Below the pieces are notes generated by a model. It searched no databases and was not told the origin of the DNA. It saw only the letters and a list, made by a program, of their open reading frames with translations. The position numbers and the translations under genes were made by a program. A stretch of DNA of 64,000 nucleotides from Oscillospiraceae bacterium (lineage in GTDB: Bacteria > Bacillota > Clostridia > Oscillospirales > Ruminococcaceae). The stretch spans positions 13,776-77,775 of the forward strand of contig JAZNTW010000013.1 of the NCBI GenBank assembly GCA_045591925.1, written 5' to 3'. Shown one piece after another: positions 24,400-55,339 of the stretch (position 1 is the first letter of the stretch; each line of letters starts with the position of its first letter).

Positions 24400-24690
24400 T
24401 TATCCAGTTTTCTCCAAGCACATCTCCGTCAAAGCCTTCTGACTAATCTCCTGTGGCTTCCCATCCGGTCGAACCCAAGCCGCAGCATCCTCCCGCCGTA
24501 GGATCAGCGGCATCCTGTCATGAATCCCTCGTAAATCACCAACAGCATCTCGTGCGAATATATATCTACTTATAAATAAGCTGCAAGCAAAAGCCGTAGT
24601 AACAACGATTGGCTCGATTCATCCATGAACGTATTGCAATTCTCAATAGGAAAGGTCGTTGCTGAATTGAGTGCGTATCAATTAGAAATC
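24400..24690 (-). pseudogene. Remnant of an SRAP (SOS-response-associated peptidase, YedK-like) gene
   Basis: The minus strand reads IEPIVVTTAFA...GIHDRMPLILRREDAAAWV...CLEKTG-stop (stop at 24400-24402), containing the HDRMP(V/L)IL motif of SRAP C-termini. An in-frame TGA lies upstream, with a possible further fragment (QQRPFLLRIAIRSW) in another frame. Confidence 0.45.
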
Positions 24691-24758
24691 GTTTTTAGGT
24701 CAGAGACGCACCCCTATGGTAGTACGATTTTTGCAACAAGGGTATTGTAATCTCATCA

Positions 24759-27726: not shown

Positions 27727-28290
27727 TCACTTTCCGGGGAATACTCCTGCATCCTGCATTACTTCAAGTAAATCCACCTTTTTTATAGTCCAGTGTGTCC
27801 GTGTCAACTCAAACAAGTGCATAGCAAGATCGGCCAAGTTATCCTTCAGAAAGGAAAACGGAATAGGGAAAAATCTCTGGAAATACACCTTGACACCGTT
27901 GTCTTGATCTCTGACATCCTTAATAAAAGCAAATAATGCTTGCTGTTCCTCAGTCCCATCACGTTCCATTGCGATAATTGCAGGCAGTTTTTTTATTTTT
28001 TCAACGACCTCATCTGACCAACCGCAGAACTCGTTTTTTACCTCATCAGTTATGTACTCGGTCAGAGCACGGGATTTATCCACTAGGATGTAGTCCTTTT
28101 CAAAAGGGTCATATCCTATTATCAGGTTGAAGTACCTTGGACGGGATGCGGTCTTGGTTCCGTCCGAAAGAAACAGATTTATTGTTGGAGAAAATGAATC
28201 AGTGTATCCAACTGCAATTCCGTCCCCTTCGGCATGAACAGAGAACGATGTCGGAACAGCATCTTCTTTTTTCACGATGACATTACTCAT
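27727..28290 (-). CDS. Hypothetical protein P2; N-terminal GDGIAVG motif
   Basis: 187-aa ORF whose ATG overlaps the P1 stop (ATGAGTAA). Confidence 0.65.
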   Translation of the reverse strand: MSNVIVKKEDAVPTSFSVHAEGDGIAVGYTDSFSPTINLFLSDGTKTASRPRYFNLIIGYDPFEKDYILVDKSRALTEYITDEVKNEFCGWSDEVVEKIKKLPAIIAMERDGTEEQQALFAFIKDVRDQDNGVKVYFQRFFPIPFSFLKDNLADLAMHLFELTRTHWTIKKVDLLEVMQDAGVFPGK

Positions 28291-29179
28291 CCTTATTTTC
28301 CCGCCTTCCTATTACAAGCCCGCCAAACACCTGTCCGATAGCGACACCGTTATCCTTTGCCACAATATTAAACTGAGCTACTGATTGCTGCTGTGTGGTT
28401 GGGTCAGTAAATGGGGCTTCATAAACTTCCACTCGTGGTTGCTCTTCCGCATTCACTTCTTCCGCTTCAACTACATCGTTCTCAGGTTTGTTCATTTCTT
28501 TCGTCTGCTCCTCCACAATGATCTCATTCTTCACTGTGAGCTTCTGCGATCTTTGGGTGCCGATATCTGTTGTGATTATTCGCGGACTGTTATCACCGGC
28601 TTCCTTAGTCCAGGTCTCATATGTATCAGCTCCTTCTTTAGTGTCTGGATGGCTGAGCAGAATATTATTCCAAACTGAAAGCAGAAAGTTTTGAAGTACG
28701 ATTTCCCTGACGGTATCAAGCTGTGCTTTGCTTACAATTTGACTGCCGATATCGAACTCACCGTCAATACTGTCATCTTCAAGTATGAGGTCAATCATTC
28801 CAGCTACAAGAAGTGCCATTGATGACTGGCTGAGATCAAGATACTTCTGACAGAACTTGTCCATCTCACACAGTACCGTTCCTTTCTCATTTCTAATCCG
28901 TAAATTCAGTCCATTCTTATAAGTAACATTATCAAATGGAAGATAACTAGGACTGTTAGGTGGACTGCCTGCCAAATATTTAGAGAAATATGATGCGAGC
29001 GTCTTGGGCTTGTTGGCTTGGTATGCCGGATTAGCTAATTTCAGAAGATCCCGGAGCATATTTGGCTTGGTAACACCGTCTTTGCTGTCTCCGTACTCTT
29101 GCTGTGTGGTCAATGTCTGATTTCCAGAACGCAACAACAGCAGTAAAAATGTATTGCCCCTTAATCGATTCAAAGCCAA
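28283..29179 (-). CDS. Hypothetical protein P1; acidic linker and C-terminal DNGVAIG motif
   Basis: 298-aa ORF with a TTG start after GAAAGGTG. First gene of the four-gene operon. Confidence 0.6.
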   Translation of the reverse strand: MALNRLRGNTFLLLLLRSGNQTLTTQQEYGDSKDGVTKPNMLRDLLKLANPAYQANKPKTLASYFSKYLAGSPPNSPSYLPFDNVTYKNGLNLRIRNEKGTVLCEMDKFCQKYLDLSQSSMALLVAGMIDLILEDDSIDGEFDIGSQIVSKAQLDTVREIVLQNFLLSVWNNILLSHPDTKEGADTYETWTKEAGDNSPRIITTDIGTQRSQKLTVKNEIIVEEQTKEMNKPENDVVEAEEVNAEEQPRVEVYEAPFTDPTTQQQSVAQFNIVAKDNGVAIGQVFGGLVIGRRENKDE

Positions 29180-29252
29180 TCACACCTTTCAACTAAATAA
29201 ACAGAATAAACTGCATAAATCACATTGCAATAAACTCAATCAATGATTTAAT

Positions 29253-29289
29253 AGCTTCAGAGAAGAAAACCTCTGAGGCTATTTTTATT
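29253..29289 (+). terminator. Rho-independent-terminator-like hairpin at the compositional junction
   Basis: AGCTTCAGAG / CTCTGAGGCT form a 10-bp stem with one G-T wobble and an 8-nt loop, followed by ATTTTTATT. Confidence 0.45.
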
Positions 29290-29366
29290 GCCTCAGCTGT
29301 CTCTTTCATTATATCACAGTCTCAGGGAAAAAGCCAGAGGCAAATCAGAAAAAAGGAGAAAATATT

Positions 29367-30122
29367 ATGAACATTGTTATTAACGGCACAGTTGCTCAGC
29401 CCCACATTTACATCTGCAGCCCCCTCCGCCCCGTTTCCACCGGCTCGATTCTCCGCGCCAACGAGCTGATCGACAATCTGAAGCTCGCCAAGGACACCTG
29501 CACCTTCGCAGCCCTCCGCGGCTGTGATCCGGTCGCACCACACCTCTTCTACCCGCAGTTCCTGAACGATGAGGACGAGGTTGAGCGTGCGCTCGGCATG
29601 GAGCTGGGGCTTAAGGCTCTGAGAAGCTGTGACGAGCTTTGGATCATTTCTCCCCGCATCAGCAGCGGCATGAGCGCCGAGATCAAGGAAGCACAGAAGT
29701 GCGGGATAAAAGTTCTTGTGTTCACTGCCGCCGGATTCCGTAAGTACACCGGCAACGGCGATATGACCGACAACTGCTACGCTGATACCGCAGACGGCGT
29801 GATTGATCAGAAGAAAGAACCCAGAACGCTTCGTGACCTGATTTCGGCGGTTGATGCACATAAAGGTACAAAAAAGAACTTGCTTGCATCCTACGATGAC
29901 GGTGATCTGAAAATGGAAGTATACAGTGAAGGAACTGTTGCTGCGAGAAGGCATAACCGCAGAACCTCCTTCAAACTTGCCAACTGCACCGATTATCAGT
30001 ATCACTCTGCTGTTGTGGAGGACGGGGGTGCAACACCTACACACATCGATGCTGAGACATTTCTGGACGAGCAATGGGAAATTCGTCTTTTAATGGAGGC
30101 TGAAGACCGTTTCGTGAAGTAA
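29367..30122 (+). CDS. DUF4406-like (nucleoside deoxyribosyltransferase-like fold) protein with extra C-terminal domain
   Basis: AAAAGGAG upstream. IYICSPLRP...APHLFYPQFL...CDELWIISPRISSGMSAEIKEAQKCGIKV follows the pattern I associate with DUF4406 phage proteins. Confidence 0.5.
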   Translation: MNIVINGTVAQPHIYICSPLRPVSTGSILRANELIDNLKLAKDTCTFAALRGCDPVAPHLFYPQFLNDEDEVERALGMELGLKALRSCDELWIISPRISSGMSAEIKEAQKCGIKVLVFTAAGFRKYTGNGDMTDNCYADTADGVIDQKKEPRTLRDLISAVDAHKGTKKNLLASYDDGDLKMEVYSEGTVAARRHNRRTSFKLANCTDYQYHSAVVEDGGATPTHIDAETFLDEQWEIRLLMEAEDRFVK

Positions 30123-30355
30123 GAATCAGATTATAAACCAATTACAATATTACATTTGTTAGTCAGGGCGCGCACTGGCGGACAGATGCTCATAACGGAA
30201 ACAACCAAGACAGCCTGTGGTCTGCATAGACCATATCAGGTGTAATGGGTGTATCCGTGTGTACATCTGCTGCCTGCGTGCCCTTTTGTTATGGGGTAGC
30301 AGTCTGCGCTGTGGGCATCTGCCGCTTAGTGTGTTCCTTGCAGAAAGGAACGATT

Positions 30356-42267: not shown

Positions 42268-42458
42268 AAATATAAATAAATAATAGAAAAGATAAGAAGA
42301 ATAGGGATTTTTCAAGTTTTTATAAGTCATTGCCTACTAACTAGCCAGGGATTGTAAGATACAAACTGTGGACGGGAACAGCCACGGTGTGTATCGGACA
42401 GGCTTGGCAGGGTGTGAGGCATGAAACAAAAATAATCATTATCAGGAGGACTAAGACT

Positions 42459-43553
42459 ATGAGAATCATTTCTTCCGAACAGGTATCCGCAGGACACCCC
42501 GACAAGATCTGTGACCAGATCGCAGATGCAATCGTGACCGACTGCTTACAGCACGACAAAGACAGCCGTGTCGCCATCGAGTGCCTTTTCAAGAACCGCT
42601 GCCTTGTGATCGCCGGTGAGCTGACAAGCACGCATGAGCCGGATTATGAGAAGCTCGTGCAGAATGTGTTCGACCGAATCAACAACGGCGGTGCGGAGAA
42701 TGCCGATGCAGGGCTTGACTACAAGCTCGATTTCACAGCCGATGATCTGGACATTGCGATTTTAGTCGATCACCAGAGCGGCGACATTGCGCTCGGTGTG
42801 AATACCGGTGGTGCAGGAGATCAGGGCATGATGTACGGTTATGCGACCAACGAAACGCCGGAACTGCTCCCGATTCCCTTCGTGCTGGCTACCAGATTTC
42901 TGGCACTGCTGAAAGCCTATCCCTGCCGTATGTTGAAAGCCGACGCAAAGGCACAGGTCAGCTTTGACTACGACAGCGGCAGGATCACGACCTTCCTCTG
43001 CTCGGTTCAGCATACACACGATGTGAAAGTGAAAGATTTCAAGCCCATCATTGAAAAGCTGATGGTGAGAACAGCAACCGAATACGGACTGAACACTGAC
43101 TTTGAAAAGCTGGTCAATCCGACCGGCAGATTTGTCCTCGGCAGTTCTTTCGCAGACTGCGGCGTTACCGGACGCAAGCTCGCCTGTGACACCTATGGCG
43201 GTATCGGGCATATCGGCGGCGGTGCGATGTCCGGCAAAGATCCGTCAAAGGTTGACCGCAGCGGCGCATATGCAGCCCGCAAAATTGCAAGGGATATTGT
43301 CAGTGCCGGATATGCGGACAAGGCAGAGGTGCAGATCGCATACGCAATCGGTGTCGCGGAGCCTGTGTCGGTCTATGTGGAAACCTTCGGCACGGAGCAT
43401 CAGGACAAGGAATTCATCAGCCAGTATGTCCGTGAGAATTACGACCTTACGCCGAGAGGTATTATTGACGGTCTGGGACTTCTCGATGTGGACTATAACG
43501 CCGTTTCCGCATATGGACACTTCGGAAAATCGTGGCTTCCGTGGGAGCAGTAA
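42459..43553 (+). CDS. metK: S-adenosylmethionine synthetase
   Basis: ATG after AGGAGGA. GHPDKICDQIAD and GGGAMSGKD signatures. Confidence 0.9.
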   Translation: MRIISSEQVSAGHPDKICDQIADAIVTDCLQHDKDSRVAIECLFKNRCLVIAGELTSTHEPDYEKLVQNVFDRINNGGAENADAGLDYKLDFTADDLDIAILVDHQSGDIALGVNTGGAGDQGMMYGYATNETPELLPIPFVLATRFLALLKAYPCRMLKADAKAQVSFDYDSGRITTFLCSVQHTHDVKVKDFKPIIEKLMVRTATEYGLNTDFEKLVNPTGRFVLGSSFADCGVTGRKLACDTYGGIGHIGGGAMSGKDPSKVDRSGAYAARKIARDIVSAGYADKAEVQIAYAIGVAEPVSVYVETFGTEHQDKEFISQYVRENYDLTPRGIIDGLGLLDVDYNAVSAYGHFGKSWLPWEQ

Positions 43554-43589
43554 GAGCCTCTAAAAAATTTTTGAGATATTTTTGAAATC

Positions 43590-43631
43590 GACCCGCCATT
43601 TTGGCCTCTCCCACGACAATATATGAGGGGC
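43590..43631 (+). repeat. Copy B of the 43-nt conserved motif
   Basis: GACCCGCCATTTTGGCCTCTCCCACGACAATATATGAGGGGC. The stem is retained with one G-T wobble. Also preceded by an A6T5 run. Confidence 0.7.
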
Positions 43632-43716
43632 GTTGTTCAACACCGATTGCAAACGCACTACGGAGCTGACCGCCCCTATCACTATGAAACACCACTGTGG
43701 AAAGGAGGCAGAGACA

Positions 43717-44076
43717 ATGCCAAGCAGACCAAAGACACCATGCCGACATCCCGGCTGTGCAGCGCTCGTTCCCTACGGTACCAAGTACTGTGACAAGCAC
43801 CGTTCCCTCCACCCGGAGGACACTCGCTCCGCAGGCAGCCGAGGCTATGGTACAGCATGGAACAAAGCCCGCAAGCGTTACCTTGAGACGCATCCGCTGT
43901 GTGTGGAGTGCATGAAGCAAGGGCGTTATGTCAAGGCGACCGATGTCGATCACATCAAACCGCACCGAGGTGACAGCGTACTGTTCTGGGATCAGAGCAA
44001 CTGGCAGAGCCTCTGTCACCGACACCACAGTATCAAAACCCGAAACGAAGACCACACCCCTGAGTACAAGTACTGA
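43717..44076 (+). CDS. HNH endonuclease
   Basis: GAAAGGAGG upstream. DVDHIKPH ... LCHRHHSIKT HNH core with Cys pairs. Confidence 0.85.
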   Translation: MPSRPKTPCRHPGCAALVPYGTKYCDKHRSLHPEDTRSAGSRGYGTAWNKARKRYLETHPLCVECMKQGRYVKATDVDHIKPHRGDSVLFWDQSNWQSLCHRHHSIKTRNEDHTPEYKY

Positions 44077-44131
44077 AAGCAAGCCACACTTACTAGCGTT
44101 GCAGTTCAGACAGGCTCAGGGGTGTACCTAT

Positions 44132-44152
44132 GGGGCGGGGCTGGGGCTGGGG
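44132..44152 (+). other. Canonical G-quadruplex-forming motif
   Basis: GGGGCGGGGCTGGGGCTGGGG: four G4 runs with 1-2-nt loops, inside a 462-nt non-coding gap. Confidence 0.6.
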
Positions 44153-44538
44153 CAGCCCGCCGGGGGCCGGTCGAAATCTCTAAAAACTGAGCAACACAAG
44201 ACCGTCGGCCCCTCTCGTGTTAAAAAACGCGAAATTGAAGGCCCCCCGCCTGTCTGGGGCCCTGACAGTTGAAAAAAATAGAGCCGCCAACGGAAACGGC
44301 GGCAACGGAAAATCTTGATTCTATGCGATATTTCACACGGCTGACTACATCTTCTCCTTTCAAAGCGGCACTGCGCTATTTCGTTAATGAAAACAGTGGA
44401 AAACGGCGATTTTTCACGCAAAAAACAAGCGAAAAACATCATTTTCAGTGTTTTTATGCTTCCGCCGTTTTTCACTGGGCGCAGCCCGTGTGGATACCGA
44501 GAAATTGCGTAGTTCTGCCATTTTGAGGATGTGAGGAT

Positions 44539-44838
44539 ATGACCGACACACAAAAGCAGCAGATCCTCAGTATGCGGATGCAGGGCATCGGATATCACGT
44601 TATCGGCAAAACGCTGAATCTGGACGAGCATCTGGTACAGCTCTACTGCAAGTCGCATGGGCTTGCTGGGGATGCCGGACTTGTCAGGCTGAACCACGAT
44701 ATTTGGTGCCGTGAGAATAACCGCTGCGCTTTCTGCGGCATAAAGCTGAAACAGTCGCGGCGTGGCAGACGTAGACGTTTCTGTTCCGGTAGCTGCCGCA
44801 CGAGATACTGCATCATGAGAAAAGATACGGAGGTATGA
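44539..44838 (+). CDS. HTH + C-terminal zinc-ribbon DNA-binding protein
   Basis: QKQQILSMRMQGIGYHVIGKTLN is HTH-like. CAFCG...CSGSC. Confidence 0.6.
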   Translation: MTDTQKQQILSMRMQGIGYHVIGKTLNLDEHLVQLYCKSHGLAGDAGLVRLNHDIWCRENNRCAFCGIKLKQSRRGRRRRFCSGSCRTRYCIMRKDTEV

Positions 44839-45023
44839 ACATGGTCTTAGCGATTCTGAACTGGATTCTGATGTTATTTATGATCGTTTTTCAGGCGGTC
44901 TGGATTCACAGCATTCTAAATCATGACGGCAAATGCCATTACACGGACTGCAAGCATTGTTTCTACGATGGCTGGTGTCCGATTCAGGAAGAGAGGAGAA
45001 AGCGTCATGACAGAAAACAATAA
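44835..45023 (+). CDS. Small membrane protein
   Basis: 62-aa ORF with ATGA overlap and a hydrophobic N-terminus. Confidence 0.5.
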   Translation: MNMVLAILNWILMLFMIVFQAVWIHSILNHDGKCHYTDCKHCFYDGWCPIQEERRKRHDRKQ

Positions 45024-45261
45024 TCAGTCTGTGGTGCAGAACGATCCGGTGAATCATCCGGCACACTACACTGCTGGCGGCATCGAGGTTATCGACTTTC
45101 TGGAATCGTGGAACTTCCCGTTCCATCTGGCGAACGCAATAAAATACATTTGCCGCGCAGGGCGGAAAGATAAAAGCAAGACCGCCGAGGACCTTCGCAA
45201 AGCGATCTGGTATATCAACCGCTACATTGAGTACCTCGGAAAGCAGGAGGGCAAGGCATGA
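45007..45261 (+). CDS. DUF3310-family protein
   Basis: ATG at 45007 after GAGGAGAA. VNHPAHYT...IEVIDF...NAIKYICRAGRK matches DUF3310. Confidence 0.75.
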   Translation: MTENNNQSVVQNDPVNHPAHYTAGGIEVIDFLESWNFPFHLANAIKYICRAGRKDKSKTAEDLRKAIWYINRYIEYLGKQEGKA

Positions 45262-45743
45262 CGCTGACTGAGACTTTCATTCAGAACGCCATCCACCTCG
45301 ATGCAGGTGCGGAGGTCATGTACGGCAGCGATCAGATTTACGACACCTACCCCTGCCGCTTTCCGACTGTCGAGTTTCAGCTTTCGGCAACGGATGCACT
45401 TGTTGAGGTTGCAGACCGCATCCGCATGGAGAAGGGCTACCTTCCGATGCATCCGCGAGACGGCAGAACGGACGACGTAGACTGCGATGGCTGGTACGAC
45501 TTCTATGTCGGCATCAGCAAGCTCCCCGGCGACCATCAGCAGTGTCAGCTCGACAGCAGCATCAGCTTTGTGGTCGTCAATTCGGATTCCGATGACAACG
45601 AGGATATGTACACAATTGACCTCACGGAATCCGAAAGGGAATGTGTATTTGATATTCTGAACCGCCAGTGCAGGCGGTATCATGGGAAGGACTGCGCCGC
45701 ACTTCTGGCGGAATCCGAAAAGGAGCTGATGGATACAGCATGA
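45258..45743 (+). CDS. Hypothetical protein
   Basis: 161-aa ORF with ATGA overlaps at both ends. Confidence 0.6.
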   Translation: MTLTETFIQNAIHLDAGAEVMYGSDQIYDTYPCRFPTVEFQLSATDALVEVADRIRMEKGYLPMHPRDGRTDDVDCDGWYDFYVGISKLPGDHQQCQLDSSISFVVVNSDSDDNEDMYTIDLTESERECVFDILNRQCRRYHGKDCAALLAESEKELMDTA

Positions 45744-47881
45744 GAATTATCAAACGCAACGGCGCAGAAGTGCCGTATGACTGTGAAAAGATACGAGCCG
45801 CTATATCTGCGGCAAATGCAGAGGTTGACGATAGGATCACCGATACAGCTATCGGCTTTATCGTCGGCAGAGTTGAGCAGCGGTGTGATGCTCTTGCAAG
45901 GCCTGTCCATGTCGAGGAAATTCAGGACATGGTCATTGATGAACTGAATCACGCCGAAGCGTACAAACTTGCACGCCATTACAGCGAGTACCGCCTGCGT
46001 CATGAGCAGCAGCGCCGGATGAATACCACAGACGGAAAAATCCTCAGTTTGCTGGAACGCAACAATGAGGAAGCCAAACAGGAGAATGCCAACAAGAACC
46101 CGATCATCAACAGCACGCTCCGCGACTATATGGCGGGTGAAGTCAGCAGAGACATCTGCCGCCGCTTCCTTTTTCCGAAAGATGTGATCGCCGCCCATGA
46201 TGACGGCATCATTCATGTACACGATCTGGACTACATCGCAGAGCCGATGCACAACTGCTGTCTGGTGAATCTGGAGGATATGCTTCAGAACGGCACAGTG
46301 GTATCCGGCACTATGATTGAGAAACCGCACAGCTTTTCAACTGCCTGCAATATCGCAACGCAGATTATCGCACAGGTGGCATCGAATCAATATGGCGGTC
46401 AGACGGTGTCTTTGGCACATCTCGCGCCTTTCGTGGATGTCAGCCGGCAGAAGATACGAGCTGAGGTGTTCGAGGATGTGAACTGCGACTGCGGGGCAAA
46501 GCTGTCTGAGGAGGAACTTGACCACATCGTAGAAAAGCGTGTGCGCCGGGAAGTCAAGCGAGGCGTACAGACCATCCAGTACCAGATCAATACGCTGCTT
46601 ACCACCAACGGGCAGACTCCGTTTGTCACGGTGTTCATGTATCTGGGCGAGGTGCCGGAGGGACAGACCAGAGATGACCTTGCACTCATTATCGAGGAAA
46701 CGCTGCTTCAGCGTATCGAGGGCGTGAAAAACGAGAAGGGCGTGTGGATCACACCGGCATTCCCCAAGCTGATCTACGTTCTCGATGAGGACAATATTCA
46801 GCCCGGTACCAAGTATTACTACCTGACTGAGCTTGCCGCGAAATGTACTGCAAAGCGCATGGTTCCCGACTATATCTCCGCCAAGGTGATGCGAAAGCTA
46901 AAGGGCGATGTGTATGCCTGCATGGGCTGCCGCAGTTTTCTCACGCCTTCGGACAATCACAAGTATTACGGTCGCTTCAATCAGGGAGTTGTGACGATCA
47001 ATCTGGTGGATGTGGCGTGTTCTTCCAATGGTGATGAAGAAAAGTTCTGGCAGCTTCTTGAGGAACGCTGTGAGTTATGCTTCAAGGCACTGATGTGCAG
47101 GCATGACCGCCTGAAAGGAACGCCATCCGATGTTGCACCGATTCTCTGGCAGTACGGCGCACTGGCGAGACTGAAAAACGGTGAGGTCATTGACGATCTG
47201 CTGTATAACAACTACAGCACAATTTCCCTCGGCTATGCCGGCATCGCAGAAATGACCTACCGCATGACAGGCTGTTCGCATACAGAACCGGCGGGAAAAG
47301 CATTCGCCATTTCCGTGATGCGGTTCCTGAATGACAAGTGCAGCAAGTGGAGAGCCGAGAGCAATATCTCGTTCTCGCTGTACGGTACACCGATGGAATC
47401 CGTCACCTACAAATTCGCTCAGTGCTTGCAGCGCAGACACGGCATCATTCCGAATGTCACGGATAAAAGCTATATCACTAATTCTTATCATGTCCATGTG
47501 ACAGAGCCGATCGATGCCTTCAGCAAGCTGATATTTGAGGCGGAATTTCAGGAGCTTTCTCCCGGCGGTGCGATCAGCTATGTGGAAGTGCCTAACTTGC
47601 AGAACAACATCCCGGCGGTGTTGGCGCTGATGCGGCATATTTACGAAACGATCCTGTATGCCGAACTGAATACGAAGTCCGACTACTGTCAGGCTTGCGG
47701 ATATGACGGCGAGATCGGGATCGTGGAAGAAGACGGCAAGCTGATCTGGGAATGCCCGAACTGCGGTAACCGTGATCAGCGGACGCTGAATGTCTGCCGC
47801 CGCACCTGCGGATACCTCGGAACGCAGTTCTGGAATCAGGGGCGTACTGCCGAGATCAAGGATCGGGTGATGCACCTGTGA
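45740..47881 (+). CDS. nrdD: Anaerobic ribonucleoside-triphosphate reductase
   Basis: N-terminal ATP-cone (IIKRNGAEVPYDCEKI). C-terminal Cys cluster and glycyl-radical motif RRTCGYLG. Confidence 0.9.
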   Translation: MRIIKRNGAEVPYDCEKIRAAISAANAEVDDRITDTAIGFIVGRVEQRCDALARPVHVEEIQDMVIDELNHAEAYKLARHYSEYRLRHEQQRRMNTTDGKILSLLERNNEEAKQENANKNPIINSTLRDYMAGEVSRDICRRFLFPKDVIAAHDDGIIHVHDLDYIAEPMHNCCLVNLEDMLQNGTVVSGTMIEKPHSFSTACNIATQIIAQVASNQYGGQTVSLAHLAPFVDVSRQKIRAEVFEDVNCDCGAKLSEEELDHIVEKRVRREVKRGVQTIQYQINTLLTTNGQTPFVTVFMYLGEVPEGQTRDDLALIIEETLLQRIEGVKNEKGVWITPAFPKLIYVLDEDNIQPGTKYYYLTELAAKCTAKRMVPDYISAKVMRKLKGDVYACMGCRSFLTPSDNHKYYGRFNQGVVTINLVDVACSSNGDEEKFWQLLEERCELCFKALMCRHDRLKGTPSDVAPILWQYGALARLKNGEVIDDLLYNNYSTISLGYAGIAEMTYRMTGCSHTEPAGKAFAISVMRFLNDKCSKWRAESNISFSLYGTPMESVTYKFAQCLQRRHGIIPNVTDKSYITNSYHVHVTEPIDAFSKLIFEAEFQELSPGGAISYVEVPNLQNNIPAVLALMRHIYETILYAELNTKSDYCQACGYDGEIGIVEEDGKLIWECPNCGNRDQRTLNVCRRTCGYLGTQFWNQGRTAEIKDRVMHL

Positions 47882-48399
47882 AATACTGCGGTCTGAATAA
47901 AAACGACATTGCCAACGGCGAAGGTGTCCGTGTGTCGCTTTTCGTCAGCGGATGCCGGAATCACTGCAAAGGGTGTCATAATCCGGAAGCGTGGGATTTC
48001 GGCTACGGTCAGCCGTTCACTGTCGAAATCGAAAAAGAGATCATCAATGCCCTGCGTCCTTCTTGGATTCAGGGCATTTCCATACTCGGCGGTGAACCCT
48101 GCGAGGAGGAGAACGAGCGTGTGCTGCTGCCGCTGCTGAAGAAGATCTGGTGGGAGATGCCGGACAAGGATATCTGGCTGTTCTCCGGATACACCTACGA
48201 GATGCTTCGGGGCGAGGAAATCCTCCGTTATGTCGATGTGCTTGTGGACGGTCCGTTCCTGCTGGAACAGAGGGACATCTCCCTTGCATTCCGGGGCAGC
48301 AGGAATCAGCGCATCCTCCGTCTGCGAGGCGGTGAGGCGGTCGGGTACCCCGCCCTCAGTCGAGGGGGCGGAGCTTCCGGGCGTACACCTTCTCGATGA
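47878..48399 (+). CDS. nrdG: Anaerobic RNR activating protein (radical SAM)
   Basis: CRNHCKGC (CxxxCxxC) near the N-terminus; GTGA overlap with nrdD. The last ~20 aa look like run-on sequence. Confidence 0.85.
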   Translation: MKYCGLNKNDIANGEGVRVSLFVSGCRNHCKGCHNPEAWDFGYGQPFTVEIEKEIINALRPSWIQGISILGGEPCEEENERVLLPLLKKIWWEMPDKDIWLFSGYTYEMLRGEEILRYVDVLVDGPFLLEQRDISLAFRGSRNQRILRLRGGEAVGYPALSRGGGASGRTPSR

Positions 48400-48544
48400 A
48401 CTGCCGCTGGCGGTCGTTCTCCAGCTCGTAGACCACCCGATGGTGATTCCTGTCGATCTTTTCGAGCAGGATCACATGATCCGGCATGGCGGTCTTGAGC
48501 TGTGCGCCCTTCTGGTAGTTGTTAATGGTAACCTCGTACTTCAT
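48356..48544 (-). CDS. Small minus-strand protein (62 aa) convergent with nrdG
   Basis: Internal ATG 48544 of track ORF 48356..48670, preceded by GCGGAGGA. Its 3' end overlaps the nrdG 3' end by 44 nt. Confidence 0.5.
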   Translation of the reverse strand: MKYEVTINNYQKGAQLKTAMPDHVILLEKIDRNHHRVVYELENDRQRQFIEKVYARKLRPLD

Positions 48545-48754
48545 ATCTGTGTCCTCCGCATTCTGTATTCGGTGGGGTTTCCCCTCGTTCCGTTGTACCC
48601 ATATTACCACGTTATCGGGGTAATAGCAAGCGGCTAAATGTACAGAACATCGGGCGCAGATCATGCACATTTGTTGTGCATATTACGACTAGGAAAGGAG
48701 CAGTATGAGCCGGAAATCAAAGAAGAATAAGCCTCGCATCGTGCTGAAAATGCG

Positions 48755-49039
48755 GTGCGGTGTGATAAGTGCGGATGTGCATTTGTACCGGAAACGCTGA
48801 CACAGCGTGAGGGCGAGATCGAATACAGCTTCTTCCGCTGCGACTACTGCGGTAAGGCGTATCTCGTATCCGTTACGGATGCAGACCTCCGCAAGGATAT
48901 CCGCAGGTACAGAACGCTTGCGGAAAAGCACAAGATCAAGCCGCTGAGTGAGCAGTCGCTCCGTGAAATGGCTGCGCTGAAGGAGCAGAACCTAAGACGA
49001 GCTGCAAAGCTGCGGCAATTGTACTATGTGGAGGGATGA
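48755..49039 (+). CDS. Zinc-ribbon protein; N-terminus probably disrupted by a 5-bp tandem duplication
   Basis: CDKCG...CDYCG. The GTG start lacks an SD. The strong SD + ATG at 48705 opens a 31-codon ORF that would be in frame if one GCGGT copy were removed. Confidence 0.55.
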   Translation: MRCDKCGCAFVPETLTQREGEIEYSFFRCDYCGKAYLVSVTDADLRKDIRRYRTLAEKHKIKPLSEQSLREMAALKEQNLRRAAKLRQLYYVEG

Positions 49040-49040
49040 A

Positions 49041-50315
49041 ATGAAAACAGCAGAACTTCGTGTGATCCCTGTCACGGAGCTGAAGCCGGCGGAATATAAC
49101 CCGCGCAAAAAGCTGAAGCCCGGTGACAAGGAATACGAAAAAATCAAAAACAGCATCGAGGAATTCGGCTTTGCCGATCCGCTGGTAGTCAATGCCGATA
49201 TGACCATCATCGGCGGACATCAGAGACTGACCGTAGCGACGGCGCTCGGATACACTGAGGTACCCTGCGCCGTGGTGGACATCGACAAGGTGCGGGAGAA
49301 GGCGCTGAATATTGCGCTCAACAAGATCACGGGTGCATGGGACGAGAGCCTTCTGGCAGAACTGCTCGAAGACATCCAGAACAGTGACTTTGATCTCGGA
49401 AAGACCGGCTTTGATCCGCCGGAGATCGAACAGCTTTTCAATCAGGTACACGACAAGCAGGTCAAAGAGGACAGCTTCGATGTGGCGGAGGAGCTGCAAA
49501 AGCCGACCTTCTCGCAGCCGGGAGATATCTGGATTCTCGGCAGGCACAAAGTCATCTGCGGTGACAGTACAGTCGCAGAAACCTATACAAAGCTGATGGA
49601 CGGGCAGAAGGCAAACCTTGTCCTGACAGATCCCCCTTATAATGTGGATGTTGAGGAGACCGCCGGCAAGATCATGAATGACAACATGAGTGACAGCGAT
49701 TTCTACAACTTCCTGCTTGCCGCCTATAAGTGTATGTATGACAGCCTCGCCGATGACGGCAGCATCTATGTATGGCACGCCGATACCGAGGGGCTGAACT
49801 TCCGCAGGGCATTCAAGGAGGCGGGATTCCAGCTTTCCGGCTGCTGTATCTGGAAAAAGAATTCACTGGTTCTCGGCAGGAGCCCCTATCAGTGGATTCA
49901 TGAGCCGTGTCTCTTCGGATGGAAGCAAAAGGGAAAGCACCAATGGTACGCAGACCGCAAACAGACGACCGTCTGGGAGTATGACAAGCCCAAAAGCAGC
50001 CCCGACCATCCGACCACAAAGCCGATCCCGCTGATGGCATATCCCATCAAAAACAGCACCATGACAAACGGTATCGTCCTCGATCCGTTCCTCGGCAGCG
50101 GTTCCACGCTGATTGCCTGCTGTGAGACAGACCGTGTTTGCCGGGGCATCGAACTTGATCCGAAATTCGTGGATGTCATCGTCAAGAGGTATCTGGCATG
50201 GTGTCACGAAAAGCAGACTGCCGAGGTCGCATATGTTATCCGTGACGGGCAGAAGCTGTCTTTCGATGAAGCAGTCGCAACGATGCCGACAGAGGACGGT
50301 GATGCCAATGGATGA
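49041..50315 (+). CDS. ParB-like nuclease domain fused to N6/N4 DNA methyltransferase
   Basis: ParB-N pattern (IPVTELKPAEYNPRK...IIGGHQR), then VLTDPPYN and LDPFLGSGST. Confidence 0.85.
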   Translation: MKTAELRVIPVTELKPAEYNPRKKLKPGDKEYEKIKNSIEEFGFADPLVVNADMTIIGGHQRLTVATALGYTEVPCAVVDIDKVREKALNIALNKITGAWDESLLAELLEDIQNSDFDLGKTGFDPPEIEQLFNQVHDKQVKEDSFDVAEELQKPTFSQPGDIWILGRHKVICGDSTVAETYTKLMDGQKANLVLTDPPYNVDVEETAGKIMNDNMSDSDFYNFLLAAYKCMYDSLADDGSIYVWHADTEGLNFRRAFKEAGFQLSGCCIWKKNSLVLGRSPYQWIHEPCLFGWKQKGKHQWYADRKQTTVWEYDKPKSSPDHPTTKPIPLMAYPIKNSTMTNGIVLDPFLGSGSTLIACCETDRVCRGIELDPKFVDVIVKRYLAWCHEKQTAEVAYVIRDGQKLSFDEAVATMPTEDGDANG

Positions 50316-51111
50316 GCTGAAGCCTCAGTTTCATGTGGTTTCGCTGTCCGGCGGGAAAGACAGCACAGCGATGCTCCTGAAAATGCTCGAAATGGGGATG
50401 CAGGTCGATTTGGTGTTATTCTGCGATACACGTCTGGAATTCCCACAAATCTATACGCATCTACGAAAAATCGAGGAAAACACCGGCATCAAAATTACAA
50501 CCGTCAAGAGCGAATACACATTTGAGTATCTTATGCTCCATAAGCCCATCAAGCGGAAGAAGCCGGAACTGCGCGGCAAGACCGGGTATAGTTGGGCGGG
50601 GCCGCTGATGCGGTGGTGTACCAATCTTCTGAAAACCGTACCTCGTGAGAAATATCTCAGTGAACTGCGGAAGAAGTACACCGTGATCGAGTACATCGGC
50701 ATTGCCGCCGATGAGACGGAGCGCATCATGCACAAGTGCAATAGCCGACCGAATGTCCGTCTGCCGCTTGTGGAGTGGGGCATGACGGAAGCCGACTGCC
50801 TGCAATACTGCAAGGAGCGCGGCTATGACTGGGGCGGTCTGTATGAGAAGTTCGGAAGGGTGTCCTGCTGGTGCTGTCCGCTGCAGCCGCTGAACGAGCT
50901 GCGAATCCTCTATTTCGATTTTCCCGACCTCTGGGAACAGCTCAGAGCTTGGGATGACAAAACATGGCGCACCTTCAAGCCCGGCTGGTCAGTCCGGAAA
51001 CTGGAGGCGCGTTTTGATTTTGAGCTGGAATGGCAGACAGACGGTAATCAGCTCGGCACAAAGGAATTCCGCAAGGCACTGAAAAAGAGACTGGAGGGTG
51101 TCGATGGCTGA
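50308..51111 (+). CDS. PAPS-reductase-like PP-loop ATPase
   Basis: ATG 50308 overlapping the previous gene. SLSGGKDST PP-loop. Confidence 0.75.
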   Translation: MDELKPQFHVVSLSGGKDSTAMLLKMLEMGMQVDLVLFCDTRLEFPQIYTHLRKIEENTGIKITTVKSEYTFEYLMLHKPIKRKKPELRGKTGYSWAGPLMRWCTNLLKTVPREKYLSELRKKYTVIEYIGIAADETERIMHKCNSRPNVRLPLVEWGMTEADCLQYCKERGYDWGGLYEKFGRVSCWCCPLQPLNELRILYFDFPDLWEQLRAWDDKTWRTFKPGWSVRKLEARFDFELEWQTDGNQLGTKEFRKALKKRLEGVDG

Positions 51112-51883
51112 TGTGAAATGCGTTTTACTGCATGATAATTTCCAAAACTTCAAAGGCTACAACATCCCGAAGGCGCAGCTTGTTATCGCAGACATCCCGT
51201 ATAACATCGGCGGCGATTTTTATGCCAGCCGTCCCGACTGGTATGTAGACGGCGACAATCAGAACGGCGAAAGCAGCAAAGCACACAAGGCTGCATTTCA
51301 CACGGACTACACCTTTAACATCGCTGAATACTTCGCCTTCTGTAACCGACTGCTCAAAAAAGAGCCGTCCAAAGGTGAAAAGGACGCTCCGTGTATGATC
51401 GTGTTCTGCGCCTTTCAGCAGATACCGAAGGTCATCCGGCAGGCGGAGAAATACGGCTTCAAGAAGTATCAGTTTTTGTGCTTTATGAAGAATTATAGTC
51501 CGCAGGTGCTGAAAGCGAACATGAGGATCGTGGGAGCAACAGAATATGCACTGGTGCTTTACAGAAACAAGCTGCCGAAGTTCCGCAATACCGATGCGGA
51601 CGGCAAGCGGCACATGATCTTCGACCACTTCGACTGGGTGCGTGACGGCAGGGATATCCCGAAGATACATCCGAGCCAAAAGCCGGTGAATCTTCTGAAA
51701 CGGCTGATCGGTATTTTTACCGATGAGGGCGATGTGGTTATCGATCCCTGCGCCGGTTCAGGCTCTACGCTGCGTGCGGCGAGGGAGCTTGGCAGACACA
51801 GCTACGGCTTTGAAGTCAGCAGGGATTTTTACAACAAAGCCTGTGAGCAGATGCTTGGGGAGGTGCTGGATGACAAAGCATGA
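51104..51883 (+). CDS. N6/N4 DNA methyltransferase
   Basis: VIADIPYN (DPPY variant) and SQKPVNLLKRLI...VIDPCAGSGST. Confidence 0.8.
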   Translation: MADVKCVLLHDNFQNFKGYNIPKAQLVIADIPYNIGGDFYASRPDWYVDGDNQNGESSKAHKAAFHTDYTFNIAEYFAFCNRLLKKEPSKGEKDAPCMIVFCAFQQIPKVIRQAEKYGFKKYQFLCFMKNYSPQVLKANMRIVGATEYALVLYRNKLPKFRNTDADGKRHMIFDHFDWVRDGRDIPKIHPSQKPVNLLKRLIGIFTDEGDVVIDPCAGSGSTLRAARELGRHSYGFEVSRDFYNKACEQMLGEVLDDKA

Positions 51884-52076
51884 ATGTGCGGTCGTGACCG
51901 CGTACACAGAGATTTCGATGCTGAAAGGCGATGATCTGAAATATCTGTATAATTACCTTTCCGGCTTCATCGGCAGACCGGTGTATACACACGAGATTCC
52001 TGCGGTGGCGGCAGCTTATAGGAAACAGATCAGAGAGGATTTCCTTGCGATATGCAGGAATGCGACCGATGCCTGA
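51870..52076 (+). CDS. Hypothetical small protein
   Basis: 68-aa ORF with GGGGAGG upstream, overlapping both neighbours. Confidence 0.5.
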   Translation: MTKHECAVVTAYTEISMLKGDDLKYLYNYLSGFIGRPVYTHEIPAVAAAYRKQIREDFLAICRNATDA

Positions 52077-52704
52077 CCTTGTAAAAAGCATCGGCTACGA
52101 TCAGGGCGAGATCATCCGGAACATTCTAAAGCTCCATGTGCCGGAGGGAAGAATCGATTGCGATCCGACCTTCAGCACAGGGGCTTTCTACAATGGAACG
52201 GACATTGCCCTGCCGCAGTACCGCTTTGATATCTTTCCGCAGCGGAGCGATGTAGTACAGTCGGATGCAAGGCATCTTCCGCTTGCAGACAGCAGTATTT
52301 CCTGCATGATGCTCGATCCGCCGTTTTTAGCGACCAAAGGAAAATCGCTGAGCAGAACTGACGGCAACATCATCAACAGGCGTTTTGGTGTATATCCCGA
52401 TGAAAAGAGCCTACACCGATGCTATTCGGATATGCTTTCGGAGGCATACAGAGTCCTGAAACCGGACGGCATCCTGATCTTCAAGTGTCAGGACAAGGTC
52501 AGCAGCGGCAGGCAGTATCTGAGCCATGTTTATATCATAAACGAGGCGGTAAAGATCGGCTTCTATCCGAAAGACATCTTTGTGCTGCTTGCGAAAAGCC
52601 GACTGGTAGCTGACTGGCAAAAGCGGAATCAGAAGCACAGCCGCAAGTATCATGCGTATTTTATCGTGCTTCAAAAATCTGACAGGCGCATCAAGTACGT
52701 CTGA
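52069..52704 (+). CDS. Putative small DNA methyltransferase
   Basis: IDCDPTFSTGAFY (motif I-like) followed by MLDPPF (motif IV-like). Confidence 0.5.
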   Translation: MPDLVKSIGYDQGEIIRNILKLHVPEGRIDCDPTFSTGAFYNGTDIALPQYRFDIFPQRSDVVQSDARHLPLADSSISCMMLDPPFLATKGKSLSRTDGNIINRRFGVYPDEKSLHRCYSDMLSEAYRVLKPDGILIFKCQDKVSSGRQYLSHVYIINEAVKIGFYPKDIFVLLAKSRLVADWQKRNQKHSRKYHAYFIVLQKSDRRIKYV

Positions 52705-52718
52705 GTCAGGAGGAATAA

Positions 52719-55079
52719 ATGAAAACAAAACATCTGACGCTCGGCAGCCTGTTTGACGGCTCCGGCGGCTTTCCGCTTGGCGGCATCCTCGCAGGGATCG
52801 AGCCGAAGTGGAGCAGCGAAATTGAACCTTTCCCGGTACTTGTCACGCACAGGCGTCTGCCGGGGGTAAAGCACTACGGCGATGTATCTACGCTGAACGG
52901 CGCGGAGCTTCCGCCGGTAGATATCATCACCTTCGGCAGCCCGTGCCAAGACCTGTCCATTGCGGGCAAGCGTGCCGGAATCCATCACGGTGATCGGTCG
53001 AACCTGTTCTTTCAGGCGATCCGTATCATCAAAGAAATGAGGGATGCAACAAATGGACAATACCCGCGATACTGCGTCTGGGAGAACGTCCCCGGCGCTT
53101 TCTCCTCCAACGGAGGAAATGACTTCAAAGCTGTCCTCGAAGCAGTTATCGGAGTTAAAGAAGAAGGGATCGAGGTGCCTGCGCCTGAAAATCACAGATG
53201 GGCAAAAGCAGACGTATATCTGGGAGACAGATGGAGCGTGGCTTACCGAGTTTTCGATGCTCAATACTGGGGTGTCCCCCAGCGAAGAGCAAGAATCTAC
53301 CTTATCGCAGATTTTGCTGGCGGAAGTGCCGGAGAAGTATTATTTAAGTCCGAAGGCGTGTCTGGGTATACTCCGCAGGGCTTCCGTGCGTGGCAAGGAG
53401 TTGCCGGAGGTGCTGCGGAAAGCGCTGGAGAGACAGGCGGGCGGTCTGACGCTGGAGGTGGAACCCTCTGCCTGAATCCGCAGGGCAATTCCGGTGTCGG
53501 CATCACCGAGGACAAAGCGCTTGCGCTGGTCGCTCAGGATCATGGCAATCATCCTGCGGTGCTTCACGCAGTCGGCATTGACGGCTACAATGCCGCAGTG
53601 ACCGATGATACCGCAGCAACGCTCGGTGTAAATTGCGGAATGTCAACCGGCAGAAACGGTGTCCTACAGGCGGCGGGATTCTCAACGGAACACAGCGCAA
53701 AGGCTCGGAGCATCGGCTACGAGGAGGAAGTCTCCCCGACGCTGAGAGCCGGTGTCGTTCCGGCGGCACTCTCGGTCGAAAACCATCCGACAGACGGTCG
53801 CGTAAAGATTCGTGAGGATGACACCTGCCAGACTCTTTGCAGCCGAGCCGGAACAGGCGGAAATAATGTGCCGCTTGTCGCTGAACCTGTCACATTGAAG
53901 ATCAGGTCAGGATGTGCAGGCGGCGGCAAGGGCGCTCTTTGGCAGACCGATAAATCTGCAACGCTCGGAACGAATAATGACCAGACGCTCTTTCAGCCGG
54001 AAATCAAAGCCTTCGGTGTATGCAGCAAGCATTCCAATGCGATGATGTCAGACAATCCGCACAGCGGTTTCTATGAAGCGACTACAAGCAGAACACTCGA
54101 CCAAAGTGGCGGTCATGCGATATCAAGCAATCAGGGCGGCATCTGCGTGGTAGCACCTGCGCCGGAGACATTCGATGTGCGTTTCACATCTGACGGCACA
54201 AAGAATGCACGTGGGCATTGCTACCCGACGGACATTTCCCGATGCCTTGATACAAGTGAGGCAAATCCGGACAGTAATCACGATGGAGTTGCAGTGGTTG
54301 CGCTTGAACCGGGGGCTGCATCCCGTGTCGGCGGTCATGTATATAGTGACGGCAAAAGCGGAACGCTCCGTGCCAATGCCGGAGATAATCAGCAGGCTGT
54401 TGTGATGCCTGAAACATTCTCCCTGCAAGGCTCAATGATCGGACGCTCGGATGAGAACGGGCCGCAGGGTGACGGCATCAACGAGGATGTGTGCTTTACG
54501 CTGAATACAACGGACAGGCACGCTGTCGCCGCACCTGATCCGGCTTACGCAATTTCCCGTGACAATCACTTCGCCGTTTCGGAGGATGTATCTGTCACGG
54601 CGGTGGCAAGAGGTCCTGCGGCAGTCGCAGCACCGGCAGACCACTATTGCACCAGTAAAAATTCCCACCACACAGTGGCGGCACACGAACAGGCAAACAC
54701 GCTGGTCGCTTCCGACTGGAAAGATCCTCCGCTTGTGAACGACCTTCCGAATGACGAGCCGGTATATATCGTTCGCCGTCTGACTCCGGTGGAGTGCGCC
54801 AGATTGCAGGGATTCCCTGACTGGTGGTGTGCCGACCTTGCAATTACTGATCCTTCCGATGAGGAGATCGCTTTCTGGACGGAGGTCTGGGAAACATGGC
54901 GGCAAATCACCAATCCCAAGGGCAAGCCAAAAACGGAAAAGCAGATCAGAAAATGGTTGGCTGATCCGTACACGGATTCAGCGGAGTACAAGCTGTGGGG
55001 CAACGGTGTCTCAGAGCCGGTCGTATACTTCGTGCTTTCCGGCATCGCATGGGCAGCGCAGAGAGATACACAAAAGTGA
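52719..55079 (+). CDS. DNA (cytosine-5)-methyltransferase with greatly expanded variable region
   Basis: Motif I LFDGSGG, IV GSPCQDLS, VI ENVPG, VIII QRRARIYL, IX RLTPVECARLQGFP, X GNGVSEP. About 490 aa lie between motifs VIII and IX. Confidence 0.9.
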   Translation: MKTKHLTLGSLFDGSGGFPLGGILAGIEPKWSSEIEPFPVLVTHRRLPGVKHYGDVSTLNGAELPPVDIITFGSPCQDLSIAGKRAGIHHGDRSNLFFQAIRIIKEMRDATNGQYPRYCVWENVPGAFSSNGGNDFKAVLEAVIGVKEEGIEVPAPENHRWAKADVYLGDRWSVAYRVFDAQYWGVPQRRARIYLIADFAGGSAGEVLFKSEGVSGYTPQGFRAWQGVAGGAAESAGETGGRSDAGGGTLCLNPQGNSGVGITEDKALALVAQDHGNHPAVLHAVGIDGYNAAVTDDTAATLGVNCGMSTGRNGVLQAAGFSTEHSAKARSIGYEEEVSPTLRAGVVPAALSVENHPTDGRVKIREDDTCQTLCSRAGTGGNNVPLVAEPVTLKIRSGCAGGGKGALWQTDKSATLGTNNDQTLFQPEIKAFGVCSKHSNAMMSDNPHSGFYEATTSRTLDQSGGHAISSNQGGICVVAPAPETFDVRFTSDGTKNARGHCYPTDISRCLDTSEANPDSNHDGVAVVALEPGAASRVGGHVYSDGKSGTLRANAGDNQQAVVMPETFSLQGSMIGRSDENGPQGDGINEDVCFTLNTTDRHAVAAPDPAYAISRDNHFAVSEDVSVTAVARGPAAVAAPADHYCTSKNSHHTVAAHEQANTLVASDWKDPPLVNDLPNDEPVYIVRRLTPVECARLQGFPDWWCADLAITDPSDEEIAFWTEVWETWRQITNPKGKPKTEKQIRKWLADPYTDSAEYKLWGNGVSEPVVYFVLSGIAWAAQRDTQK

Positions 55080-55156: not shown

Positions 55157-55339
55157 TCATTCAGATTTCTTGTCTCCGCCAAGCTTGATCTTTCCGTGCT
55201 TTTCCTCATATTTTTCAATGCAGTCACGGATCAGGATCAGAACCTGACTGTTGGCAGAACGACCTTCGTAATCAGCAACAACGTGAAGTTTATCAAGCAT
55301 CTCCTGTTCAATACGGATGGATACACTTTTAATAGCCAT
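55157..55339 (-). CDS. Ribbon-helix-helix (Arc/CopG-like) DNA-binding protein
   Basis: MAIKSVSIRIEQEMLDKLHVVADYEGRS is an N-terminal beta-strand + helix pattern typical of RHH. AT-rich islet on the minus strand. Confidence 0.65.
   Translation of the reverse strand: MAIKSVSIRIEQEMLDKLHVVADYEGRSANSQVLILIRDCIEKYEEKHGKIKLGGDKKSE

Follow-up and report, generated by a model that had tools for sequence, protein, structure and literature searches.

An orphan C5-methyltransferase gene with an enlarged variable region

The stretch of DNA analysed here (the window) comprises 64,000 nucleotides from an Oscillospiraceae bacterium (GenBank assembly GCA_045591925.1, contig JAZNTW010000013.1, positions 13,776 to 77,775 of the forward strand). 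Our subject is a gene within it for an orphan C5-cytosine DNA methyltransferase (C5-MTase), together with a second open reading frame (ORF) that is nested inside that gene. The C5-MTase gene occupies window positions 52719..55079 on the + strand and encodes 786 aa, as defined by the ORF call, by matches to PF00145 and TIGR00675, and by alignment of its motifs with those of M.HhaI. A preliminary description of the locus, made from the letters of the sequence, had called this protein a C5-MTase, and the assignment is borne out by both profiles, which match residues 8–197 above their cut-offs (124.5 bits against 22 for PF00145, and 115 bits against 100.65 for TIGR00675). The motifs that we located follow the canonical order, with I (FDGSGGF, residue 12), IV (PCQ, 75), VI (ENV, 122) and VIII (QRRARIYL, 188–195) in the N-terminal half, and IX (RRLTPVECARLQGFP, 686–700) and X (GNGVS, 761) in the C-terminal half. 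The catalytic motifs are invariant in 82 diverse relatives. From the profile scores and motifs, the enzyme is predicted to methylate the C5 position of cytosine in DNA.

The catalytic domain is divided into two parts. The N-terminal part (residues 1–197, 52719..53309, +) carries motifs I–VIII and the catalytic Cys76, while the C-terminal part (residues 685–786, 54771..55076, +) carries motif IX, a helical insertion of ~55 aa and motif X, with residues 685–703 aligning to motif IX of M.HhaI. The structure of the full protein was predicted with AlphaFold2 from an alignment of 82 sequences, and the predicted local distance difference test score (pLDDT) exceeds 90 for residues 1–210 and 685–786, corresponding to the catalytic domain. 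Motif VIII is separated from RLTPVEC in motif IX by 491 residues, in good agreement with the figure of about 490 given in the preliminary description.

The insertion between motifs IX and X (DWWCADL...KQIRKWLADPYTDSAEYKLWGNG, residues ~701–760, window 54819-54998) is a separate feature of the C-terminal part. It is nearly invariant across the clade and absent from M.HhaI, and it is modelled by AlphaFold2 as three confident helices (714–731, 740–748 and 753–761).

Thr-Leu anchors and modules of the variable region

The region between motifs VIII and IX had been read as about eight tandem target-recognition domains (TRDs), each centred on a Thr-Leu (TL) dipeptide. All eight of the TL strings quoted in support of this are present (residues 301, 341, 372, 415, 459, 549, 594 and 661) and the recurrence is real, but the count was too low. 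The insert holds 11 TL dipeptides, the others being at residues 249, 392 and 423, plus two degenerate anchors that fall in register in module–module alignments (CL at 509 in SRCLDTS, and TA at 628 in VSVTAVA), giving a number of modules nearer to 10–11. From composition, 1.85 ± 1.3 TL dipeptides would be expected, and none of 5000 shuffles reached 11; almost half of the insert leucines (11/25) directly follow a Thr. The residues around the TL sites follow a consensus, E-[DE]-x-[SAC]-x-T-L-x-[AT]..G, with acidic residues at positions −5/−4, a small residue at −2, Ala or Thr at +3 and Gly at +6 to +8, and the variable regions across the wider clade, which contributed 495 TL sites, gave a matching logo. 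The window modules are mutually weakly similar (7 of 55 pairs have z > 3), and their alignments place the anchors in register.

The reading of the insert as a module array holds from residue 246 onwards. The first ~48 residues (198–245, 53310..53453, +) are dual-coded with the nested +1-frame ORF described below, which the preliminary description had missed, and this segment is thus a post-motif-VIII linker rather than a recognition module.

To place the modules among relatives, we use an exhaustive search of 1.84 billion representatives, which returned 32,401 homologues; comparisons were made on the best ~150 (module counts are out of 152 representatives). A closer set consists of more than 120 relatives with at least 65% identity and lengths of 693 to 866 aa, from which 121 sequences (65–97% identical) are considered as family members.

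The eleven modules are contiguous on the + strand. M1 proper (residues 246–282, 53454..53564, anchor TL249) is found in all close relatives, and the M1 region comes first in 112 of the 152 representatives. M2 (residues 283–317, 53565..53669, anchor TL301) is a 35-aa presence/absence cassette with exact boundaries, carried by 47 of the 121 family members. M3 (residues 318–350, 53670..53768, anchor SPTL341) occurs in 42 representatives and varies in position, while M4 (residues 351–385, 53769..53873, anchor QTLC372), which ends in GTGGNNVP, occurs in 61, and 2 of the 121 relatives carry it twice, as a duplicated 35-aa cassette. M5 (residues 386–426, 53874..53996) has three anchors (TL392, TL415 and TL423) and is seen in 46 representatives; it is missing together with M3–M4 in the 693-aa variant P0116, which lacks residues 339–431 (93 residues). 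M6 (residues 427–480, TL459) and M7 (residues 481–529, degenerate anchor CL509) together span 53997..54305 and are a paralogous pair (z = 5.1) that usually co-occurs, either as M6-M7 or as M7-M6. M8 (residues 530–563, 54306..54407, anchor GTL549) is present in 21 representatives, often preceding M4, and M9 (residues 564–606, 54408..54536, anchor FTLNTTDRH594) is present in 76. M10 (residues 607–640, 54537..54638, degenerate anchor VTA628) is a paralogue of M9 (z = 5.2) and a presence/absence cassette of ~33 aa, shared by 102 of the 121 family members. The last module, M11 (residues 641–684, 54639..54770), has the anchor NTLVASDWKD661.

Cassette gain, loss and shuffling among relatives

The length differences within the family of 121 resolve into five discrete cassettes of 35, 35, 35, 43 and ~33 aa. 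All five of these indels are confined to the variable region, the catalytic core having none, and most of the cassettes carry one anchor. Whole cassettes of 33–43 aa are present or absent even among relatives that are 85–97% identical. The window enzyme has two of the five (residues 283–317 and ~607–640) and lacks the other three. Among the best 150 homologues, the spacing of motifs VIII and IX forms a continuum, from 117 to 701 aa, and increases with the number of TL dipeptides (r = 0.81); the window enzyme, at 493 aa on this measure and around the 90th percentile, is not the maximum.

When the 11 window modules were used as queries against the representatives, we found them to recur in varied combinations and permuted orders, including M8-M4, M9-M6, M7-M3 and a duplicated M6-M7, and they also occur in small enzymes that have just one to three modules. 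Variants that gain or drop single cassettes, and orders that are permuted, are what autonomous TRDs would be expected to leave behind in evolution.

Selection was analysed using DNA of 15 close relatives from IMG/VR. The ratio of nonsynonymous to synonymous substitution rates (dN/dS) is 0.00–0.21 for each module and 0.076 for the whole insert, compared to 0.11–0.13 for the catalytic core (0.13 for its N-terminal part). Values for M2 (~0), M3 (0.002) and M11 (0.009) are close to zero, and M7, M9 and M10, which include the modules with degenerate anchors, gave 0.05–0.12. The synonymous rate itself (dS) differs up to five-fold between modules in these close relatives, from 1.2–1.3 for M4, M5 and M9 to 0.35 for M8, a spread that suggests that the modules have distinct, mosaic recombination histories. 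Module ends in the 866-aa variant contain four copies of a 30-nt unit that encodes GGNNxPLV (L006:7131-7265 and 7887-8258), two adjacent ones being 105 nt apart. This junction repeat may plausibly serve as micro-homology for the in-frame duplication and deletion of cassettes.

Comparison with characterised methyltransferases

Since the 1980s, multispecific C5-MTases recognising two to five targets have been described in a small number of Bacillus phages, and the SPR methyltransferase is triple-specific. As a comparator, we used the 439-aa enzyme of an SPbeta-like Bacillus phage that falls in the same 90% cluster as UniProt P00476 ('Orphan methyltransferase M.SPRI'). This protein, here M.SPRI, has a 209-aa variable region with three anchor cores: SPTITTNKGEG, HTLSASDWRG and AFTVNTIDRHGVA. 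Three window modules match M.SPRI TRD cores when scored against shuffles, namely M8 with the first core (z = 3.7), M11 with HTLSASDWR (z = 3.6) and M9 with EPAFTVNTIDRHGVA (z = 7.1), while the eight other window modules gave no match to the M.SPRI cores.

The Bacillus-phage enzymes as a group (M.SPRI, M.Phi3TI, M.Rho11sI, M.H2I and M.SPBetaI) resemble the window enzyme in being phage-borne orphans with a single catalytic core and an enlarged region between motifs VIII and IX, made up of contiguous short TRDs with a T-[LIV] anchor. They differ in scale and distribution. Compared to the three TRDs and ~209 aa of M.SPRI, the window enzyme has ~10–11 modules in 491 aa, and it belongs to a separate clade from phages of gut Clostridia in which cassettes are combined across thousands of relatives. 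In the Bacillus phage MTases, tandem TRDs confer multiple recognition sequences (PMC8936443). The cassette structure, the shuffling, the likeness to M.SPRI cores and the purifying selection together lend good support, on comparative grounds, to the earlier suggestion of a tandem architecture of independent TRD-type units like that of these phage enzymes.

A second point of comparison is M.(phi)BssHII, an enzyme of a Bacillus stearothermophilus prophage with five specificities, whose TRDs are reported to lie at separated locations. It is multispecific, as is proposed below for the window enzyme, and has more TRDs than the SPR group, and so the principle reaches beyond three targets; unlike it, the window enzyme keeps all its modules contiguous between motifs VIII and IX, at about double the number. 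Monospecific enzymes such as M.HhaI and M.HaeIII share the ten-motif catalytic scaffold but have one folded TRD of ~80–90 aa, in contrast to the many short modules, with no confidently predicted fold, of the window enzyme. We take the TL dipeptide of the modules to correspond to Thr250-Leu251 in the HhaI TRD. In the literature, we found no description of giant or expanded multi-TRD C5-MTase arrays.

A proposed role for the array, and its alternatives

At the TRD position, this C5-MTase has an array of anchor-bearing modules that recombine and are kept under purifying selection, and the gene lies in a methylation island. By analogy to the Bacillus-phage enzymes, we think it probable, at roughly two chances in three, that the protein is an expanded multispecific anti-restriction C5-MTase with a tandem array of ~10 recognition modules serving one core. 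In this proposal, the region between motifs VIII and IX would have grown into ~10 short target-recognising modules (33–54 aa) built around Thr-Leu-type anchors, and each module in turn would pair with the shared core and read its own short DNA sequence. A single protein could thereby methylate many different sites, and this may shield the replicating phage DNA pre-emptively from the diverse Type II restriction enzymes that current and later hosts carry. Comparison of relatives shows how the array itself evolves: whole modules are gained, lost, duplicated and shuffled in frame.

Several observations weigh against this proposal. The AlphaFold2 model has pLDDT below 50 for almost the entire insert and no TRD fold is seen in it, so that TRD folds could not be counted as the preliminary description had proposed; nor did the model reveal a single unrelated domain. 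Only three of the 11 modules are significantly similar to characterised TRDs, two of them modestly after correction for 11 tests. With a catalytic core that is 29% identical to that of M.SPRI over its N-terminal part, the analogy must also span a large distance. None of three queries searched against solved structures (the insert, M9 and the SPR core that M9 matches) gave a sequence match, and thus no DNA target can be inferred for any module; when the M.SPRI comparator was itself searched against the PDB, the alignment covered the core motifs alone. We know of no structure that shows several TRDs sharing one catalytic core. Finally, some window modules could be inactive. Lange et al. are said to have described inactive 'pseudo-domains' in the Bacillus phage enzymes in 1991, and similar units could be present here. 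The low-confidence insert is compatible with modules that become ordered only on DNA, as far as the model can suggest.

The possibility of pseudo-domains leads to the alternative that survives best, although we consider it unlikely: that the enzyme is only modestly multispecific, with two to four active TRDs, and that the remaining units are pseudo-domains, folding spacers or a reservoir for recombination. The degenerate anchors CL509 and TA628 would fit with this, as would the pseudo-domains reported from Bacillus phages. The sole moderately confident stretch of the insert in the AlphaFold2 model is the beta-rich segment of residues 430–510, within M6–M7, and these two modules are nearly always together, as if they formed one larger unit. 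However, the purifying selection on every module is at least as strong as that on the core, and this includes those with degenerate anchors (the values for M7, M9 and M10 are given above). Relatives moreover show gains of cassettes in addition to losses, and small enzymes contain cassettes as one of their very few modules.

A second alternative, which we regard as quite improbable, is that the array acts collectively as one loosely specific DNA-binding region, making the enzyme a relaxed or almost nonspecific C5 counterpart of M.EcoGII. The insert is rich in Gly, Ala, Ser and Thr and is predicted to be largely disordered, and semi-specific orphan MTases do exist on mobile elements (PMC12707154). 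Against this, the discrete cassette boundaries, the permuted orders and the similarity to SPR TRD cores point to autonomous units, and a collective domain would not tolerate the loss of 93 residues seen in P0116. That the insert is unrelated to target recognition, and is instead a repeat or linker used in, for example, protein–protein interaction, virion packaging or regulation, seems to us barely credible: it matches nothing in Pfam or the PDB and lacks a confident fold, but it sits exactly at the TRD position between motifs VIII and IX, it bears the TL anchor and flanking logo of the clade, three modules match SPR TRD cores, and an enzyme without the insert would have no TRD.

If the proposal of an expanded multispecific enzyme is right, the multi-TRD principle would extend to ~10 modules, roughly three times the number in M.SPRI, with variable regions of up to 700 aa in relatives, and it would do so in Ca. 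Heliusvirales, a widespread and prevalent order of human-gut phages. Should each module be active, the family would provide a large natural experiment for decoding TRDs to targets, would help to explain patterns of 5-methylcytosine in the gut virome, and could form a basis for programmable multi-site methylases.

A second reading frame within the methyltransferase gene

A +1-frame ORF of ~140 codons is nested in the C5-MTase gene at 53053..53475 on the + strand, with the frame open from 53041 and ATG codons at 53044 and 53053. It overlaps C5-MTase codons 108–253, which include motifs VII–VIII, and ends in a conserved C-terminal domain (...STLSQILLAEVPEKYYLSPKACLGILRRASVRGKELPEVLRKALERQ). The last 73 residues of its product have tblastn matches in 136 phage records, each of them lying under a C5-MTase gene; these include P1 dmt and phages of Vibrio, Salmonella, Pectobacterium, Caulobacter, Akkermansia and Mycobacterium. 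The same +1 offset relative to motifs I–VIII is seen in P1 dmt (L084:2222-2713), CP-T1 gp12 (L085:1758-2219), phage NatCom_991, a Catenibacterium prophage and mycobacteriophage Dallas (L088:1501-1743), and the ORF was also mapped at L086:2015-2437 and L087:3001-3393. The nested frame is open for ~140–163 codons in genes where this was measured, and all 62 of the distinct genes compared keep the +1 frame open over ~142 codons.

Three measures indicate that this frame is itself under constraint. Firstly, the window and P1 proteins score higher in the alternative frame than in the main frame over the same nucleotides (Smith–Waterman scores of 123 and 95, respectively), and 1000 synonymous recodings of the main frame gave an alternative-frame score of just 27 ± 8. 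Across six pairs of genes, alternative-frame scores of 123–271 compare to 27–67 expected (z = 9.4–12.4). Secondly, the 62 genes show a flip in positional entropy. For the 40 codons after motif VIII, values at main-frame positions 1/2/3 are 0.81/0.38/0.46, compared to 0.60/0.46/1.40 in a control block, and at the amino-acid level the entropy after motif VIII, in the linker, is 0.69 in the +1 frame versus 1.06 in the main frame. Thirdly, the proportion of synonymous differences (pS) among close relatives falls from 0.324 (codons 1–107) to 0.136 (108–169), 0.117 (170–196) and 0.035 (197–245, the linker), then rises to 0.413 (246–282) and stays at 0.41–0.50 beyond the nested ORF. The drop is 10-fold, and the boundaries of low pS coincide with those of the ORF. 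The synonymous recoding, the pS profile and the entropy flip together led us to reject the idea that alternative-frame conservation is a by-product of the main frame. Codons 108–253 are dual-coding, with the +1 frame under purifying selection of its own.

We infer from these patterns that the nested frame is probably translated into a conserved product of ~140 aa. An ATG or GTG codon with a Shine–Dalgarno-like sequence is found near the 5′ end of the ORF in all five genes examined, and in genes of the Heliusvirales type the start is conserved as M[AD][DN][IT][QR]D. It may be that the frame is instead expressed as a +1 frameshift fusion rather than from its own start. Taken gene by gene, an open upstream stretch of the frame does not reach significance where GC content is high (P = 0.2–0.7); it does so in CP-T1 (P = 0.009), and its universality across genes is itself significant.

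We also considered whether the nested peptide exists as a normal domain elsewhere, and rejected this. The database yielded just hypothetical proteins of 74–140 aa, mostly on short contigs, and the one case on a long contig that was inspected is again nested inside an intact MTase. Some ~1,350–1,730 database entries of this kind are gene-caller picks of the nested frame, and in one Catenibacterium assembly the caller has split an intact 615-aa MTase into calls of 130 and 373 aa. The product belongs to no Pfam family, the ORF is unannotated in the records of P1, CP-T1, NatCom_991 and Dallas, and our literature search found nothing relevant on an overlapping gene in C5-MTases. AlphaFold2 was uninformative for the nested product (pLDDT 48.9). 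Canonical C5-MTases carry L.DILE..V.EKYYLS in the main frame after motif VIII, and the conserved nested segment is weakly similar to this; it weakly resembles the corresponding main-frame segment of M.SPRI, L.DLLE..VDEKYYL (hhalign E = 0.009, probability 4.5%).

In their catalytic cores, P1 Dmt and gp12 of Vibrio phage CP-T1 belong to the same subclade as the window enzyme (DAQY[WF]G..QRR.R around motif VIII, followed by VLFE.EGV), and they share its nested ORF, but have short variable regions of ~165–170 aa without an expanded array; P1 Dmt is also fused to a Dam-type domain. The nested ORF therefore goes with the core subclade rather than with array expansion. The M.SPRI-type gene does not have it, with eight stops in that frame. 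Together with the low identity between the catalytic cores, this places the window enzyme in a separate lineage, though one that would work like the M.SPRI family.

Like other overprinted phage and viral genes, the nested ORF is revealed by suppressed synonymous change and by conservation of the alternative frame. Unlike them, it spans catalytic motif VIII of a DNA methyltransferase, and its conservation extends to phages of Firmicutes, Proteobacteria and Actinobacteria. It is a new case of overprinting with unusually broad conservation, and would be a conserved yet unannotated gene inside the well-studied P1 dmt and in phages of three bacterial phyla. Recoded or codon-optimised MTase clones silently destroy the nested frame.

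A combined reading of both frames would hold that the enzyme has ~8–11 specificities, drawn as an array from a shuffled cassette library of the Heliusvirales, and that the nested ORF additionally encodes a subunit or regulator of the MTase. We put this forward tentatively, since we doubt that all of its parts will hold together. If it were true, the natural cassette variants would amount to a dictionary from TRD sequence to DNA target, and codon-optimised synthetic copies of these MTase genes would miss a required partner.

In mycobacteriophage Dallas, we also see that the C5-MTase is split between two frames and annotated as two 'DNA methylase' coding sequences, genes 118/119 (L088:1098-2217). 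Motifs I–VIII and some TRD-like sequence are in frame 0, and further TRD-like sequence and motifs IX–X are in frame +1. A pseudogene, a split enzyme and a programmed frameshift are all possible explanations.

Prophage setting and neighbouring genes

The C5-MTase is an orphan enzyme borne by a Heliusvirales-like prophage, and its gene is one of four MTase genes beside a gene for S-adenosylmethionine (SAM) synthetase; the region 42387-52704, upstream of it, is the methylation island that holds the others. The G+C content of the window steps up near 30 kb, from ~0.40 to ~0.53, and the junction between host and prophage likely lies at ~29000-30200. To its left are host genes (a penicillin-binding protein transpeptidase, a LytR-CpsA-Psr protein and a dockerin protein), and to its right are a sigma-70 region 4 protein and then a phage module for replication and nucleotide metabolism, comprising a DUF2800 nuclease, a family A polymerase, an SNF2 helicase, a D5 primase-helicase, the SAM synthetase and NrdD. 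No tRNA was found at the junction, and Pfam gave no integrase in the two ORFs at 28283-30074.

The phage SAM synthetase gene, whose product supplies the methylation cofactor, is at 42387..43553 (+) and has the N, M and C domains of Pfam S-AdoMet_synt. The Pfam assignments for the following + strand genes are a ParB-N6/N4 MTase (49026-50315), a 3′-phosphoadenosine-5′-phosphosulfate (PAPS)-reductase-like gene (50314-51111), an N6/N4 MTase (51098-51883) and a small MTase-like ORF (52045-52704) that precedes the C5-MTase gene. A SLOG protein and a DUF4314 protein are also among the neighbours, and the neighbouring ORFs that were scanned yielded no recognisable nuclease partner. The order of ParB-MTase, PAPS reductase and C5-MTase genes is also found in phage NatCom_17901 and in the Catenibacterium prophage, and full-length relatives (44–51% identity) with the same local gene order are present in ~20 Ca. 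Heliusvirales gut phage genomes. In a survey of Heliusvirales genomes, a C5-MTase was present in 67% and a SAM synthetase in 58.9%, and an anti-restriction role was suggested; the architecture of the C5-MTase was not analysed in that study (PMC11283538).

Two further features adjoin these genes. Just outside the prophage, at window 23012-27038 on the − strand, a gene for an AAA_13 ATPase of 758 aa with an AbiEii-like AAA_21 signal lies beside one for a helix-turn-helix protein, and the pair may represent a host defence or abortive-infection locus adjoining the integration site. Directly downstream of the C5-MTase gene, a 60-aa ORF on the − strand (window 55157-55339; MAIKSVSIRIEQEMLDKLHVVADYEGRS...) appears, on reading its sequence, to resemble ribbon-helix-helix proteins of the CopG/Arc type.

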